Shown here one piece after another: positions 35,675 through 41,950 of a stretch of DNA of 52,975 bases (its first letter is position 1; every line of letters starts with the position of its first letter). The stretch lies in the sequence record NC_010106.1. One strand, written 5' to 3'. The position numbers and the translations under genes were made by a program. Origin of the DNA: Escherichia phage phiEcoM-GJ1. Below the pieces are notes generated by a model. The model did not search any database. It saw nothing but the letters and a program-made list of their open reading frames with translations, and had not been told where the DNA came from.

Positions 35675-37123
35675 ATGGCAATTCCAATTTCCGATATCAT
35701 CCAGGTCAACATTGCGGTATCTCCTAACGCTGTTGCCGTGGAAGGTTTTGGTCCGCTCTTGTTCTTGAGCAAGCAGTTTGTTCCAGCACCAGGCGAACGT
35801 GTTCCTGTTCGCCAGTATTCCAGCATGGCTGCTGTTTCTGCCGATTTCCCATCTGGTGAAATCTACCAAGCTGCTTTGGCATGGTACTCTCAGAAACCGA
35901 CTCCGAAGTATTTCCTTGTGGGTGCTATCACTCATGAAGATGTTACTCCGGCAACTCCAGGCACTGTTACTGCATCTGCTGCCGCAACTCTGGAAACTAT
36001 CACTGCGCTGACTAATGGTGTGCTGTCTGTTAACGTTGACGGTATTGACCGCTCTACTGCGCCAATCAACTTCTCTTCGGCTTCCGACTTCGGTGCTGCT
36101 GCCTCTATGGCAAACGCTGCACTGGTTGCTGCGAACATTCCTGTAACCATGTCCCAGACTACAGGCACCTTTAAAGTTACTACCAACTCCACTGGCAGCA
36201 ACTCTATTATCGGTGATGTATACGGCTCTGCTGCCCCTGCATTCAAACTGTATTCTGCATCAAGTCCTGTATATGTTCAAGGCACTGATGAAGTGTCTAT
36301 TGGCACAGACCTCAACGCAATCTTGAACTCCACGTTCGACTTCTTCTTTGTTGCAATCGACCGCAAATATCGTGGCAGTGCTGAAGGTGACAACCAGATG
36401 ACTGTTGCCAAGTGGGCAGAAGCAAACGAGAAAGTGTTTGGTTGGGCTGACAACGATGCTCAAATTCTTGTTCCTGGTGCCGAGTCCAGCTTCAAGCGAG
36501 CTAAAGAACAAAACCTCCAGCGTACTTTGCTGGTGTATGATGCCTCTGACAATGGTGACGAGTATCCAGAGATTTCTATTCTGGGTCGTGCATCAACTGT
36601 CAACTTCAACGTTGCAAACTCCGCACTTGTCCTGGCATTCAAACAAGGTCCAGCTATTAAGACTGCTGACCTATCTCCGAACCAACTCGCTGCACTTGAG
36701 CGTGTAAATGGTAACGCATTCATCAACGTTGGTGGGAACACTATGTTCTACAACGGCAAGATGGCTGACGGTACTTGGTTCGATACCGTTCAGGGTGTAT
36801 CTTGGCTTACCTCCAAGATTCGTGCGAACGTATTCAACCTGTTCTACACCTCCACTACCAAGATTCCTTGGACTGATACTGGTGTGGCTCTGGTAAACCA
36901 ACAAGTAACTCTGGCTCTGGAACTGGCTGTGACCAATGGTCTGATTGCCCCAGGTTACGACAATGAAGGCACCTTCTATGCAGATGGCTACAAAGTCTTG
37001 TCTACCGACTTGGCTCTGATGCAATCTCAGAAAGGCGCTCGTATCTGGGAAGGTACTTCCTTCATTGCAATTGGCTCTGGCGCATTGCAGGGTGCAGTTA
37101 TCTCCGGCAACTTCGTTCAGTAA
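35675..37123 (+). CDS. tail sheath protein (putative)
   Basis: 482-aa ORF with host-optimal codons, immediately followed by a ~150-aa tube-like gene, a chaperone pair and the tape-measure-position gene. Confidence 0.55.
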   Translation: MAIPISDIIQVNIAVSPNAVAVEGFGPLLFLSKQFVPAPGERVPVRQYSSMAAVSADFPSGEIYQAALAWYSQKPTPKYFLVGAITHEDVTPATPGTVTASAAATLETITALTNGVLSVNVDGIDRSTAPINFSSASDFGAAASMANAALVAANIPVTMSQTTGTFKVTTNSTGSNSIIGDVYGSAAPAFKLYSASSPVYVQGTDEVSIGTDLNAILNSTFDFFFVAIDRKYRGSAEGDNQMTVAKWAEANEKVFGWADNDAQILVPGAESSFKRAKEQNLQRTLLVYDASDNGDEYPEISILGRASTVNFNVANSALVLAFKQGPAIKTADLSPNQLAALERVNGNAFINVGGNTMFYNGKMADGTWFDTVQGVSWLTSKIRANVFNLFYTSTTKIPWTDTGVALVNQQVTLALELAVTNGLIAPGYDNEGTFYADGYKVLSTDLALMQSQKGARIWEGTSFIAIGSGALQGAVISGNFVQ

Positions 37124-37135
37124 GGGGTGCGATAA

Positions 37136-37591
37136 GTGAAACAATATTCTTTCTATAATACCGACCTCATTATCGATGGTGCTCGTGTAGATGGTTTTAC
37201 TTCTGGTAATGCCATCATCACGGCTCGTCGTAACGCACCTCAACACCTGCCTGTTATTGATGCATATGGTAAGTTGGCTGTGGCTACCACGGCTGACCTG
37301 TCTGGTACGATTACTTTCCCGCTTCTGCAAACCGCAGATTGGAACGAAATCCTGTACAACCGTGCTCAGTTAACTCAGGCAACTGGCCTGTCTGGCAACA
37401 AGTCTCTGTGGCAACCGCTCCAGATTCAGATTGTTGACAAGATGGGTGATGTGCTGGTCAATGGTGTAAACGGCGCTATCTTGCAGCAACCTGCAATTCA
37501 GCGTGGCGTATCCTTCACGTCTAACGTGTGGGCTATCTTTGTAGAACGCCTCCAGATTAAGACTGGTTCTTATCCGGAAATTGGCGTTTAA
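37136..37591 (+). CDS. tail tube protein (putative)
   Basis: 151-aa ORF (GTG start after AAGGGG) between the sheath and chaperone genes. Confidence 0.5.
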   Translation: MKQYSFYNTDLIIDGARVDGFTSGNAIITARRNAPQHLPVIDAYGKLAVATTADLSGTITFPLLQTADWNEILYNRAQLTQATGLSGNKSLWQPLQIQIVDKMGDVLVNGVNGAILQQPAIQRGVSFTSNVWAIFVERLQIKTGSYPEIGV

Positions 37592-37603: not shown

Positions 37604-38062
37604 ATGGCTTGTGAATTGCTTCAACGTGAATTCACAAACTCCAAAGGCGAAACAGTGTTAGTCGTTGTTCGACAATTGTCGGCTTCGGCTGCACTGTCTC
37701 TTCACGCGGAGTTGGTAAGCAAGTTAGGCTCACGAGTATTTCCATTCATCGAAGGTAAATATAACTTCGCTGATATTATATACTTGATGCAGCAAGTAGA
37801 GCATACCGTATTCACAGAATTGTTTAAGCGTGTTATCAGCATGCACTCGTCCATAGACGGACAAGAAATCAAACCTGCATTATATGATATGCAGTTCAAT
37901 GGCGAATTGATGTTGTCTTGCCATGTCTTTGCTTTCGTGCTCGAAGCAAACTTCCTTGATTTTTTCAAGCAAGGGCTCGAAATCAACGAACAGAGACGAT
38001 TGGAGGCGGAGGAAGCATCCAAGCTGGCAGAGCAGAAGAATTCGAGTCCGGAGACAGTTTAG
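37604..38062 (+). CDS. tail assembly chaperone (G-like)
   Basis: 152-aa ORF upstream of the tape-measure-position gene; contains slippery heptamer T TTT TTC where the -1 frame opens. Confidence 0.55.
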   Translation: MACELLQREFTNSKGETVLVVVRQLSASAALSLHAELVSKLGSRVFPFIEGKYNFADIIYLMQQVEHTVFTELFKRVISMHSSIDGQEIKPALYDMQFNGELMLSCHVFAFVLEANFLDFFKQGLEINEQRRLEAEEASKLAEQKNSSPETV

Positions 38063-38238
38063 TATCCCTGTTCCCCGACATAAAATATTTTCTGCATCGT
38101 CCTATAATCGAAGACAGTTCTCTCTGCAAGTTACGTGAATTGCAGGATGGAACCTATTCGATTATGGACTTATTGCTATTCCACGACATTCTCGATTTGC
38201 GTAAGAAACTCGAACCAGTAGATGAAGACAATGGCTAA
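37960..38238 (+). other. -1 frame extension of the tail chaperone (GT-like frameshift product)
   Basis: The -1 frame opens at 37960 at the heptamer TTTTTTC (37960-37966) and runs to 38238, overlapping the next gene start by 17 nt. Confidence 0.5.
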
Positions 38239-41200
38239 TCAAAAAGATTTAATGAAGTTGAGCGTTAATGAGTTAATTGCATTAGGCTCTCAAAGCGGTC
38301 TGACTTTCCATGCTGGTATGAAGAAGTCGCACATGGTTCAACAACTTAGTGCGAGCGCTGCTTCGGGATGGCTGGATACAAATGCAGAATTAATGGGTGG
38401 GTCGTTTGAAGATGACAGTTTAATTACTGAATCTCTTGGCGACTCTTCCATGATTTCAGACGCTGCCCACATTGCACAAGTGCTTTCAAGTGCTGGCTAC
38501 ACAGAAGCATTTCATGCAGCAATGAATGGCCCAACACACCATGTAGAAGCTGTTCACGCATACATGGAAAGGCTTGGTGTCAACACAGATGATGTGTGGA
38601 TGCACATGCCAAAGCCAAATCCGAACTTACCGCAAGGTAGCTTCAACATGCTTAATGCGTACATGCGTGATACGCTGGCAGGTCATCAAGATATAATGCC
38701 GGAACTTCCTGGTCATTACACTGGTGACATTATGGGTGAATACTCTACAAACCGTGGAGATATTGCCAAATCTATGGGCTATCTTGCTCATATGTATGTT
38801 GACCGTCAACAATATGACGACCCAGACCGCTATGCACGAGATGTTTATCGTGTAGCCAAACGTTTAGAATCAGAATTGCCGCAAAACTTCCGTGAAGTTG
38901 CTGCTGTATCTGCAATGAATGTAGGTAATAAGTCGGGGCCAAGAGTTTCATACATGGATTCTCTCCCTCAACTTGGTTCCGAATCTATTGTTGGTGATAT
39001 TCAACATCCTCGCCAACCACTTAACGCATCTGGCCTACCTTTAGGCTCTATGGGTTCTGGCATTAAAGCTGAATATTCTTTATCTGCATCATTATCTGGC
39101 TCCCCAGGTTGGTCTGATGCAAGTAAATCTTTATATCAAGATGTATCTGGCGCAGTTAAATCTGCTGCTAAGGTATATGCTGGTGGTTCAGAACGAGGGA
39201 TGAACGCATATCGCACTCAATCTTCTGACCGAGATTTGATTCTTGATTCTGCATCTCGTTATACAGACCTTGCAGATGCTCGTTCTGGTTATGACAACCT
39301 AAAGAAAGATATTGGTGATGACCCTCGTTACTCTGGTGCATCTATTCGTGGCGTACTGGAAAATGCTCACCAATATAATGAAGCTGAAATCAGTAAGACT
39401 TTCGACCCTGCTGAACGTTTAAGAAATACTGGACCTACTGAACTTAGTACATCCAATGAGTTTACGGCAAATCTAAATGAACCGACAAGTTGGAACTCTG
39501 CAAGGGATAGAAGAGAGTCTATTGCTATTGCAAATCTCGATAGTGCTAGCGTTGGACAGCATAGTTCGGTTAAGTACCACGATGCGCTCGAACAAGGTAC
39601 GCAGGAGTGGCTTGATTTTCGTAAGCAGTATGATATTACTGGCTCTACTATTGGTGACTATCTGGGCCACAACCCCGCAACCAATAATAGCCCAATACAT
39701 ACAATGGGCGAAAAGATTGGCCTCACAGTAAGAAAGGATTCCCCACGAGCGCGCGAGAACTTTGAGCGTGGACATAGATTAGAGGCGTGGGCCAGACCCA
39801 GGGTAGGTGAACGATATGGGATTGAAATAACTGAAACTGGTGCAATCACAAACGACGACTATCCTGGCATGATGTACTCGCCTGATGGGCTAATTGGTGA
39901 TGATGCTTTGTGGGAACATAAAGCTCCAAATAACTTTAAAGATTTGGAAACAACTCCAAACTACATGGACCAGATGCAACTTGGTATGCATTTGAGTGGC
40001 CGTAGTCGCACACTGTTTACCCAAACTGTTGGCGAAGAGTCCAGAAGTCAGTGGGTTGAAGCCGACCCAACGTGGTTTGAACGTAACAAGAACAAGATTA
40101 TATCCTCTCAAGCACGCATGAATGCTGGACGCGAGTTTATGGAAAGCTCCGACCTTGAGGGAAAAGACCTTGTTAATGAAACCCGCAAAGTTATGTCTGG
40201 TGATGGAATTTGGGGCTACCAGACTCGTGACCACAGGGAAGGTGAGGGATATACTGCTGGCAAGCGCGGGATGGCTAAATATAGTGCTGCTGCTGGCACT
40301 GCTGCTGACCCGTTTATTGGCTCCCATTCTCCCTACAATCCAGAGGCATCTCGTTCAGGCTACCAACCAAACTTTGTAATGCACGAGCAAAACTTTCCAG
40401 CAACCACAGGAAATGGTGATACTGGAAATGACTCGATGGCATTGTCTGTTAAGAAAGGTATCCTTGCTGCTCAGGAAGAGAATAAGCAAAAGGGTATTGG
40501 TGCAGACGCAGACTTTGATGGCAAAGCTGATTCAATGGGTTGGAATCAGGAACGATTTGATGCTGCCAATGGTGGTGGAAGTGGTGGCGGCGGTGGTCGT
40601 GGCGGCTACTTCACAAGTGGTGGCAACTACTTCGATGACTACGGTCGTATGGGTGGTTCACTTGCTGCTGGCATTGCTGGTGGCAGTATTGGTTCGGCAA
40701 CCAACGGAGTTATGCAAGCATTGATGGCAACTCCTGCCGGACGTATGGCTGCTGTAGGCATTGGTGCTATTCAGATTGGCAATGAAGCTGCTGAATACAT
40801 GAATGACTTTATCGGCAACTCGCTTGATGCTGGTGTTATGAATCCTAATGAATATTCTTCCATGTCGCAAGGCTTGGAGATGTTAGGACTCAACTCACAA
40901 CAAGCGGCACGTATGAATCAAACCACACATAGTGCCTACAACACCATGCTTAACGGCGACCCCAGCGCCGCTGTGAACATCGTTCGCGGCAGTAGGGGAT
41001 TGCTCACCATAGGTGATATTCGCTCGACTGGCGGCGACCCTGTTGCCCTCGCTCGCATTATGCAGGAAAGAGGCAAGGAACGTGGCTGGAGTCAGGCCCG
41101 TATCGCTGGTGCTGCGCAGATGGCTGGGCTGGATGGTATGGCTCGTGCCTTCGACCGCACGGAATACAGCCATGAGCGAGCAGGTTCGGTGGTAGAAAGT

Positions 41201-41950
41201 GGTAGAAACTCTGACTTTGCCGAAGGTATGGCTCAATCAGAAATGTTGCAGGTGGAGCGCGCACAGCTTCTGCCAGGGTATAACGTGCCACAAAGTGTGC
41301 TATCTCATGGTGCTGCACTGTTCGAAGCTGGAAGCACTGCTGCTGGTGCTGCTAACTCTGGATACAGCCAAGCCCGACAAGTTGCTGCAAACGTTTATGA
41401 TTTCATTGCTGGTGAAGAGTCTGGTGGCAAGGAATACAACAAGGATGGTACACGAGTTACAAGCCCGACTGGTGCTCGTGGAATCATGCAGGTTCTTCCT
41501 TCTACTGCTCGTGACCCAGGTTACGGAATCAAACCTTCTGATGGAAGTCCTGAAGATGATGCTCGTGTCGGTCGTGAATACTACGATGCGATGTATAAAC
41601 GATTCGGTGGCGACCATGAGAAAGCAATGGCTGCTTACACGGATGGTGCTGGAACTGTTGACAAGGCTGTCGATAAGTTTGGAATGGATTGGCTCAGTGC
41701 TGTTCCGGCTCAGGCTCAGAAACGTGTTAAAGCATTCCGTGAATGGTCCAAATCTTCTCAATCTTTGGAAGAAGGTGCTACAGGGTTTACTCGCAATGGA
41801 ATGTCCTACGGTCAAACCCAAACTGTTGTCAATGTTAAGATTGATGCTAAGGTCAACAACCAGGTTGCTTCTGCTACAGTTGCAGTTCCTGGTGGCCAGA
41901 CTGTAACTCAACAAATGAACATGAACAACGGTGCACAACAAAGACGTTAA
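38222..41950 (+). CDS. large multidomain virion protein at the tape-measure position: HeH-like N-terminus, lambda-exonuclease/YqaJ-like PD-(D/E)XK nuclease domain, Gly-rich region, lytic transglycosylase (SLT) domain
   Basis: 1242 aa; N-terminal L..L.V.EL..L motif (Rho-N/HeH-like); residues ~440-640 contain QGTQEWLDFR...ITGSTIGDYLG and YSPDGLIGDDALWEHKAP...YMDQMQLGM, matching the lambda exonuclease/YqaJ active-site pattern; GGGSGGGGGRGG tract; C-terminal GEESGG...SPTGARGIMQV...AYTDGAG matches the SLT signature. Confidence 0.7.
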   Translation: MKTMANQKDLMKLSVNELIALGSQSGLTFHAGMKKSHMVQQLSASAASGWLDTNAELMGGSFEDDSLITESLGDSSMISDAAHIAQVLSSAGYTEAFHAAMNGPTHHVEAVHAYMERLGVNTDDVWMHMPKPNPNLPQGSFNMLNAYMRDTLAGHQDIMPELPGHYTGDIMGEYSTNRGDIAKSMGYLAHMYVDRQQYDDPDRYARDVYRVAKRLESELPQNFREVAAVSAMNVGNKSGPRVSYMDSLPQLGSESIVGDIQHPRQPLNASGLPLGSMGSGIKAEYSLSASLSGSPGWSDASKSLYQDVSGAVKSAAKVYAGGSERGMNAYRTQSSDRDLILDSASRYTDLADARSGYDNLKKDIGDDPRYSGASIRGVLENAHQYNEAEISKTFDPAERLRNTGPTELSTSNEFTANLNEPTSWNSARDRRESIAIANLDSASVGQHSSVKYHDALEQGTQEWLDFRKQYDITGSTIGDYLGHNPATNNSPIHTMGEKIGLTVRKDSPRARENFERGHRLEAWARPRVGERYGIEITETGAITNDDYPGMMYSPDGLIGDDALWEHKAPNNFKDLETTPNYMDQMQLGMHLSGRSRTLFTQTVGEESRSQWVEADPTWFERNKNKIISSQARMNAGREFMESSDLEGKDLVNETRKVMSGDGIWGYQTRDHREGEGYTAGKRGMAKYSAAAGTAADPFIGSHSPYNPEASRSGYQPNFVMHEQNFPATTGNGDTGNDSMALSVKKGILAAQEENKQKGIGADADFDGKADSMGWNQERFDAANGGGSGGGGGRGGYFTSGGNYFDDYGRMGGSLAAGIAGGSIGSATNGVMQALMATPAGRMAAVGIGAIQIGNEAAEYMNDFIGNSLDAGVMNPNEYSSMSQGLEMLGLNSQQAARMNQTTHSAYNTMLNGDPSAAVNIVRGSRGLLTIGDIRSTGGDPVALARIMQERGKERGWSQARIAGAAQMAGLDGMARAFDRTEYSHERAGSVVESGRNSDFAEGMAQSEMLQVERAQLLPGYNVPQSVLSHGAALFEAGSTAAGAANSGYSQARQVAANVYDFIAGEESGGKEYNKDGTRVTSPTGARGIMQVLPSTARDPGYGIKPSDGSPEDDARVGREYYDAMYKRFGGDHEKAMAAYTDGAGTVDKAVDKFGMDWLSAVPAQAQKRVKAFREWSKSSQSLEEGATGFTRNGMSYGQTQTVVNVKIDAKVNNQVASATVAVPGGQTVTQQMNMNNGAQQRR

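Follow-up and report, generated by a model that had tools for sequence, protein, structure and literature searches.

Escherichia phage phiEcoM-GJ1 and its Chaseviridae relatives very probably make the long form of their tail assembly chaperone by programmed -1 ribosomal frameshifting of the lambda G/GT type

In phage lambda, the slip site in the genes for the tail assembly chaperones is G_GGA_AAG. The two lambda products, gpG and gpGT, share an N-terminal domain that acts on the tape measure protein, while the T domain acts on the tube subunit, and the G:GT ratio is 30:1 (PMC5009743). Among the -1 heptamers of E. coli, U_UU.U_UU.C, a motif used by insertion sequence (IS) elements, falls into the most efficient class, H_HH.U_UU.Y, and its shifting exceeds 0.1% in the absence of any stimulator (PMC4066793). 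In December 2025, a conserved programmed -1 ribosomal frameshift on an invariant GTTTTT was proposed for the chaperones of the Vandenendeviridae and Andersonviridae (PMC12846349). Here, we characterize the tail assembly chaperone locus of Escherichia phage phiEcoM-GJ1 (NC_010106.1), a member of the genus Carltongylesvirus in the Chaseviridae. The whole analyzed stretch of 52,975 nucleotides (nt) is referred to as the window, and the locus was translated in three forward frames. We conclude that the chaperone gene of this phage and of its family very probably carries a lambda G/GT-type programmed -1 ribosomal frameshift. The following features define the locus.

37604..38062, + strand: G (TAC-N), the zero-frame tail assembly chaperone open reading frame (ORF), 152 amino acids (aa)
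37957..37959, + strand: TGA, the -1 frame stop directly before the heptamer (translation ...SKLP, stop, FFQARAR...)
37960..37966, + strand: slippery heptamer T_TTT_TTC, by direct reading (codons 119-121, GAT TTT TTC)
37966..38238, + strand: part of the -1 frame that would be translated following slippage (90 sense codons and a TAA)
38068..38235, + strand: T domain (LFPDIKYFLHRPIIEDSSLCKLRELQDGTYSIMDLLLFHDILDLRKKL...), small and predicted to be helical (phrog_4364, E=2.2e-17; DUF6889 just below its cut-off)

The zero-frame codons GAT TTT TTC encode D-F-F and thus place the heptamer in the X_XXY_YYZ register. A heptamer scan showed that T_TTT_TTC is the sole canonical heptamer in the G ORF. Because the -1 frame is closed by the TGA on one side and G ends at its own stop (38060-38062) on the other, a slip must fall between 37960 and 38062, and this interval contains the one heptamer only. 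Counted from the heptamer, the -1 frame comprises 92 sense codons followed by TAA at 38236-38238 (93 codons). The initial annotation, made from the letters of the window, had given the coordinates of the locus, the 152-aa ORF, the position of the heptamer, a -1 frame opening exactly there, its 93 codons to 38238 with an overlap of the next gene and a junction reading ...LDFFQARAR..., and re-reading of the sequence found every one of these correct. A -1 slip predicts the junction ...ANFLDFF/QARARNQ... (slash, point of slippage), and the predicted GT fusion joins G residues 1-121 to 90 further residues for a total of 211 aa. The predicted GluC junction peptide of GT is ANFLDFFQARARNQRTE, the tryptic junction peptide being unusably long.

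In the mechanism that we propose, most ribosomes would translate G to its own stop, while a minority would slip back by one base on the heptamer and continue in the -1 frame to 38238. During slippage, tRNA-Phe on UUU (P site) and on UUC (A site) would re-pair to UUU UUU. The resulting GT protein would consist of a Phage_TAC_15 domain, a Gly-rich linker and a helical T domain of ~55 aa (DUF6889/phrog_4364). If lambda gpG/gpGT is taken as a guide, the N-terminal domain common to both forms would coat the tape measure protein, whose gene lies just downstream, and recruitment of the tube subunit would fall to the rare T domain, so that tube and sheath would polymerize to the measured length. Again as in lambda, both G and GT would be left out of the finished virion. 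That it is the ribosome and not RNA polymerase that slips, together with the G:GT ratio and the binding partners, is what we infer here.

Taken by itself, the single sequence is only suggestive of a frameshift. In-frame X_XXY_YYZ heptamers occur 32 times in the 13,620 codons of the window (ca. one per 425 codons), and the probability that 92 codons stay free of stops, as calculated from base composition, is ca. 0.004. The number of open -1 frames running across stop codons in the window was also tried as a statistic and discarded as uninformative; such open frames are common because neighbouring genes often use that frame.

The locus was compared with its relatives. The comparison set consisted of 25 loci from both Chaseviridae subfamilies and unclassified relatives, with hosts in the genera Escherichia, Shigella, Yersinia, Pectobacterium, Erwinia, Pantoea, Proteus, Vibrio, Aeromonas and Shewanella. 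In tblastn, identity to the phiEcoM-GJ1 chaperone goes down to ca. 30%, and the median pairwise identity of the N-terminal part is 38%. The heptamer TTTTTTC is present at the equivalent codon and in the same register at 24 of the 25 loci. The exception is Erwinia phage Faunus (locus L021, 1560-1566), which has G_TTT_TTC with both the -1 frame and the T domain intact. The Faunus sequence resembles the GTTTTT motif reported for the Vandenendeviridae. The residue preceding Phe-Phe is variable (D, S, A or E), its third base being T. Third-codon positions are at least 94% conserved in only five of 115 alignment columns, three of which are the heptamer, and Phe codons elsewhere in these chaperone genes are TTC in 99 and TTT in 49 cases. 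The -1 frame of each of the 25 loci opens either at the heptamer or just before it and runs without a stop up to the start of the tape measure gene; the +1 frame does not. The initial annotation had listed an extension frame not conserved in relatives among the grounds for refutation; the frame is conserved throughout the set, with an identical heptamer in all loci except that of Faunus. A shift into the +1 (or -2) frame was considered as well and rejected, as that frame shuts soon after the G stop in most relatives. Beyond the comparison set, the two-frame layout with its heptamer recurs in over 100 phage genomes that were sequenced independently (G in 107 records, T in 109) and additionally in metagenomes.

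Homopolymer runs in the window were also counted. On the coding strand, T6 is found only at 251-264 (251 and 263-264), within a non-coding stretch (251-269), and at 37960, while the number of A6 runs is zero; base frequencies predict ca. 22 T6 and ca. 29 A6 runs. Since T6 is otherwise non-coding and A6 absent, the slip site is the only T6/A6 run inside any gene. This sole in-gene run, in combination with the family-wide heptamer and open -1 frame, is far beyond chance. As an observation in its own right, A6/T6 homopolymer runs are strongly purged from the phiEcoM-GJ1 window.

The extension is under purifying selection as a coding sequence. Past the G stop, codon-position entropy in the -1 frame is ca. 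0.9/0.5/1.6 bits (positions 1/2/3), equal to that of the G body, while codon-position periodicity vanishes in the dual-coded overlap. It is right at the slip site that conservation of the -1 frame sets in (FFQARAR / FFRARG). The T domain occupies ca. 55 aa at the C-terminus of the extension and is conserved in both Chaseviridae subfamilies, the alignment of the extension giving the consensus FPxIxYFLHRPxIEDSSLCxLxELQDGTYSxxDLLxFHDILDLR. Orthologous T regions score above the gathering cut-off of Pfam DUF6889 (PF21829; 23.9 bits) with 25.5 bits for Y2, 24.3 for Faunus, 24.8 for pAh6-C, 38.6 for VPs20, 33.5 for ctfzr933 and 46.8 for the metagenomic protein P0075. An AlphaFold2 (AF2) model of the T domain alone showed four helices (predicted local distance difference test score, pLDDT, 84.5). 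A fold search with this model returned no PDB match, and BFVD gave only T-domain orthologues, including a phiEcoM-GJ1 protein at 100% identity.

The zero-frame protein matches Pfam PF21822, Phage_TAC_15, with 67.1 bits (E=2.9e-18; residues 20-126 aligned to profile positions 5-124 of 127; gathering cut-off, 22 bits) and phrog_11820, 'tail assembly chaperone', with E=2.5e-75. This is in good agreement with the initial annotation, which had called it a tail assembly chaperone. A search for G homologues returned 46 proteins, each of ca. 150 aa and all matching PF21822, which cover 50-67% of GT, mostly 58%; the two frames are merged in none of these close homologues. When the T domain by itself served as the query against 1.84 billion representative proteins, the hits were mostly stand-alone predictions of 35-110 aa, which are truncated gene calls. 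One natural fusion was found at a distance, and by this search only. The 194-aa metagenomic protein P0075 carries Phage_TAC_15 (43.6 bits) and DUF6889 (the 46.8 bits given above) in one frame. Its 51.9-kb contig, ERZ25070720:ctg115445l (L029, 4493-5585), encodes a TAC_15-only gene (171 aa), then P0075, then a Dit-like gene, so that the short and long chaperone forms are two separate genes there. The Phe-Phe at the P0075 junction is coded by the non-slippery GTG TTC TTC, and the genome has a GC content of 66%.

Further, the slip site extends into a wider family. The unclassified myovirus ctfzr933 (MW202455) carries T_TTT_TTT at NFKDFF, and its T domain is encoded in the -1 frame. T-domain loci from IMG/VR (L033-L071), found by a search with the single T-domain protein P0071, have T_TTT_TTN at NFxDF(F/L) in 28 of 38 cases, N being C in 10, G in 8, T in 7 and A in 3. 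Where N is G or A, the second Phe is changed to Leu and the U6 run is retained. The IMG/VR exceptions include six loci without a canonical heptamer and one without the -1 architecture. The chaperone of Pseudomonas phage KPP10 (Vandenendeviridae) matches Phage_TAC_15 with 86.2 bits and ends in ...NFGSVF, with G_GTT_TTT at the same profile position and a -1 frame that is open to its tape measure gene. As the KPP10 locus is the one treated in PMC12846349, the Chaseviridae site is homologous, by position, to a signal that had previously been put forward for sister groups. The literature searched contained no paper on a chaperone frameshift in the Chaseviridae or in Carltongylesvirus, nor any mention of DUF6889.

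Several observations weigh against programmed ribosomal frameshifting in phiEcoM-GJ1. The first concerns stimulatory elements. No Shine-Dalgarno (SD)-like motif was seen upstream of the heptamer in phiEcoM-GJ1, and a convincing conserved stimulatory RNA structure was not found in individual or consensus folds. The best candidate, which is unproven, is a 9-bp stem in the minimum free energy (MFE) fold with the following arms.

37973..37981, + strand: 5' arm of the candidate stem (GGGCUCGAA), MFE fold, starting 6 nt past the heptamer
38041..38049, + strand: 3' arm of the candidate stem (UUCGAGUCC), MFE fold

The z-score of this stem is -1.96 (single-sequence MFE fold), and that of a 201-nt fold is -0.91. 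A consensus fold of 10 sequences reached -0.43 kcal/mol, with one of six predicted pairs showing a single both-sides change. The stem sequence is conserved in close genera, within DNA that is dual-coding, and is essentially without compensatory support. In 60- and 100-nt folds of each genome, the stem was not positionally conserved in distant genera, and G-rich segments at +7 paired with different distal partners in different genera. A missing stimulator is not damaging to the proposal because the lambda G/GT frameshift reportedly requires no RNA structure. Second, the T region of phiEcoM-GJ1 itself scores 20.5 bits against DUF6889 within the fusion and 22.9 bits alone, in both cases just below the cut-off. 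Third, no proteomic data for the locus were found in the literature searched; as chaperones are absent from virions, virion proteomics would miss GT. Lastly, the seventh base is C, G, T or A in the wider family, which fits a run-dependent mechanism equally well as tandem-tRNA slippage, and an extra U added by RNA polymerase at U6 would yield an identical GT protein.

The last two points lead to transcriptional slippage, in which a fraction of the late mRNAs would gain one U at U6 and standard decoding would then give GT. The enzyme would possibly be the phage's own single-subunit, T7-like RNA polymerase, which is encoded at 655-2601. The free choice of base after U6 fits this scenario, and the purge of A6/T6 runs could mean that homopolymer runs are hazardous to this phage. 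A non-translational route has been argued for T4-like chaperones (Vladimirov et al. 2022, in the form in which it is cited in PMC12846349). Nevertheless, we judge transcriptional slippage to be quite improbable. Runs of T5 length serve the same site in Faunus (G_TTT_TTC) and KPP10 (G_GTT_TTT). For slippage to become appreciable, bacterial and T7 RNA polymerases need at least ca. 8-9 A/T. The X_XXY_YYZ register, relevant to ribosomes only, is constant, although conservation of the Phe-Phe residues themselves makes this a weaker argument. Within the Chaseviridae, the seventh base is always C, the efficient E. coli class, and homopolymer depletion is general in E. coli genes as well (PMC4066793). 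A broader version, in which polymerase stuttering acts at the U-run instead of, or besides, ribosomal slippage and the purge is the footprint of a slippage-prone phage polymerase, likewise seems unlikely to us. If it were true, the chaperone site would be the one run kept on purpose.

That the downstream frame is instead an independent small gene, with the heptamer incidental, is highly improbable. In its favour, several records call a separate small coding sequence (CDS), and phrog_4364 as well as many of the 35-110-aa database entries stand alone. However, the annotated starts vary from record to record. The small CDS is the 56-aa gp65 in ST32, orf66 in PP101 and a 73-aa 'hypothetical protein' in phiEcoM-GJ1, and the start of ST32 gp65 maps to a CTG codon in phiEcoM-GJ1 (38068). 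The first ATG/GTG/TTG of the -1 frame in phiEcoM-GJ1 is codon 61, which has no SD motif and lies inside the conserved domain (beginning at ca. codon 36); in relatives, the only candidate start codon is found at 81/104 (4HA13), 67/98 (Fifi44) and 76/94 (Spp001). No -1 frame start codon is conserved across the relatives, and most lineages lack any ATG/GTG/TTG 5' of the conserved domain. SD-like motifs precede candidate -1 starts at three loci, with only one of them upstream of the domain. Ribosomal slippage is annotated in none of the 21 public records inspected, which show either a separate small 'hypothetical protein' with differing starts or an unexplained gap of 140-180 nt (nine of the 21 records, seven of them from Chaseviridae). 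An independent gene is also at odds with -1 frame conservation that sets in at the heptamer and with the existence of a one-frame TAC_15+DUF6889 protein. The open -1 frame, its coding signature, the lack of a conserved start and the distant one-frame fusion together bear out the conserved G/GT-type architecture claimed in the initial annotation.

That the layout arose by coincidence or through a sequencing error, or that it marks a gene in decay, with no functional recoding, has a negligible probability: single in-frame heptamers and open -1 frames across stops are indeed common, as outlined above, but the same layout and heptamer recur in the independently sequenced genomes and metagenomes, the -1 frame is under purifying selection, and the frames are merged in no close homologue.

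The surroundings of the chaperone gene agree with programmed frameshifting of the G/GT type. Its nearest structural neighbours are listed below.

35675..37123, + strand: tail sheath gene (DUF3383, E=7.7e-66; phrog_205 tail sheath, E=5.1e-99)
37136..37591, + strand: tail tube gene, directly 5' of G (phrog_280, E=4.6e-32; KPP10_Orf10, E=3.9e-4)
38231..41950, + strand: gene in tape measure position, longest ORF from 38222 (phrog_19855; SLT and YqaJ domains)

Orthologues of 37136..37591 are labelled tail tube in the records of relatives; for the gene in tape measure position, the PYps23T and SSEM1 records give tape measure. A tail completion/terminator gene is also located 5' of the chaperone and a baseplate hub gene 3'. 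The order of sheath, tube, G and tape measure position is identical in all relatives whose flanking genes were retrieved. With the chaperone gene following those for sheath and tube and preceding the one in tape measure position, the tail-module assignment made in the initial annotation is upheld. The locus region is 88-96% identical to that of Escherichia phages ST32, flopper, EcoM1, Mangalitsa and others (Chaseviridae, Carltongylesvirus).

The end of the -1 extension overlaps the start of the next gene, be it the ATG at 38222 (longest ORF) or that at 38231. The true start is probably ATG 38231, which is favoured because the phrog_19855 alignment begins at residue 4 of the 38222 ORF. The overlap of the GT stop with ATG 38231 (38231-38238) reads ATGGCTAA and was found again in many relatives of both Chaseviridae subfamilies. 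It is possible that tape measure translation is coupled to GT termination by this overlap, which would fix their ratio.

Some further observations were made along the way. In the 1242-aa protein in tape measure position, a YqaJ-like exonuclease domain at aa 462-594 (PF09588, E=3.8e-11; phrog_434, RecE-like) is accompanied by a C-terminal SLT lytic transglycosylase domain (aa 1048-1152). A nuclease fold within a tape-measure-like protein is unusual, and the RefSeq record of ZPAH14 calls the orthologue 'exonuclease'. The single-subunit T7-like RNA polymerase gene mentioned above (PF00940, E=1.7e-16) is present in a phage with a contractile tail. The start of the tube gene is annotated inconsistently: several records (loci L002, L003 and L031) give a gene of 336 nt that begins ca. 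120 nt downstream of the start of the 456-nt ORF seen in ST32 and in the window. Finally, PP952070.1, 'Staphylococcus phage Pel53' (host Staphylococcus hyicus), is 93% identical in this region to E. coli Carltongylesvirus, making its host label doubtful.

If the proposed frameshift is accepted, the region from chaperone to tape measure in the 107-109 Chaseviridae-type records should be annotated as one joined CDS, corresponding to the 211-aa GT in phiEcoM-GJ1. Further, Pfam DUF6889 and phrog_4364 would be assigned a role, namely that of the T domain which Phage_TAC_15 chaperones gain through frameshifting. With respect to recoding mechanisms, nothing new is learned unless transcriptional slippage is true.

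How the locus relates to known systems can be summarized as follows. In case of the E. coli dnaX and IS3-family signals (PMC4066793), the similarity lies in an X_XXY_YYZ heptamer decoded by E. coli ribosomes, whereas the high efficiency of those signals comes from flanking stimulators, namely an upstream SD or a downstream hairpin or pseudoknot 5-9 nt from the heptamer. In the contractile-tailed phage P2, the E/E+E' chaperones are the product of a shift to which phiEcoM-GJ1 offers a parallel. The P2 signal is reportedly a -1 frameshift on a six-T run just 5' of the tape measure gene. However, the P2 chaperone family is unrelated, showing no match to the phiEcoM-GJ1 chaperone in profile searches.

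The closest counterpart is the Vandenendeviridae/Andersonviridae locus described in the paper on Pseudomonas phage Adele (PMC12846349), which shares with phiEcoM-GJ1 the Phage_TAC_15 domain, an NFxxxF C-terminal motif, a U-run and an open -1 frame. The Phage_TAC_15 alignments of KPP10 and phiEcoM-GJ1 even end at the same profile position (ca. 121-122), and the downstream piece is mis-annotated as a 'hypothetical protein' in both groups. The two differ in that the Vandenendeviridae use G_GTT_TTT with five U instead of U6C and in that the KPP10 T region is not detectably DUF6889. The analysis in PMC12846349 is comparative as well, and its coverage is of families other than the Chaseviridae. The contig ERZ25070720:ctg115445l is similar with respect to Phage_TAC_15, DUF6889 and an NFGxFF junction motif, but has short and long forms as adjacent genes and is frameshift-free. 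A U-run slip site at the NFxxFF junction is common to the Chaseviridae, the Vandenendeviridae and many uncultured myoviruses, with one lineage having switched to two genes.

Judged by the features of the G/GT class after Xu, Hendrix & Duda 2004, phiEcoM-GJ1 has the expected gene position, a startless -1 ORF overlapping G, a slippery site in register and a conserved layout. As in lambda, two overlapping ORFs lie between the major tail subunit and tape measure genes, and slippage by -1 close to where G ends would give a rare fusion whose T part has no start of its own. Lambda differs in being a siphovirus with chaperones from other Pfam families, whereas phiEcoM-GJ1 has a contractile tail, T_TTT_TTC as its slip site and the combination of Phage_TAC_15 with a DUF6889-like T domain. 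For lambda, the 30:1 ratio is established, as are the binding partners, and phiEcoM-GJ1 is likened to it on the basis of its sequence. Overall, our results support the view that phiEcoM-GJ1 and its relatives possess an ordinary, textbook-type G/GT chaperone frameshift, unannotated in the family records inspected, for which a homologous signal has recently been proposed in related families.

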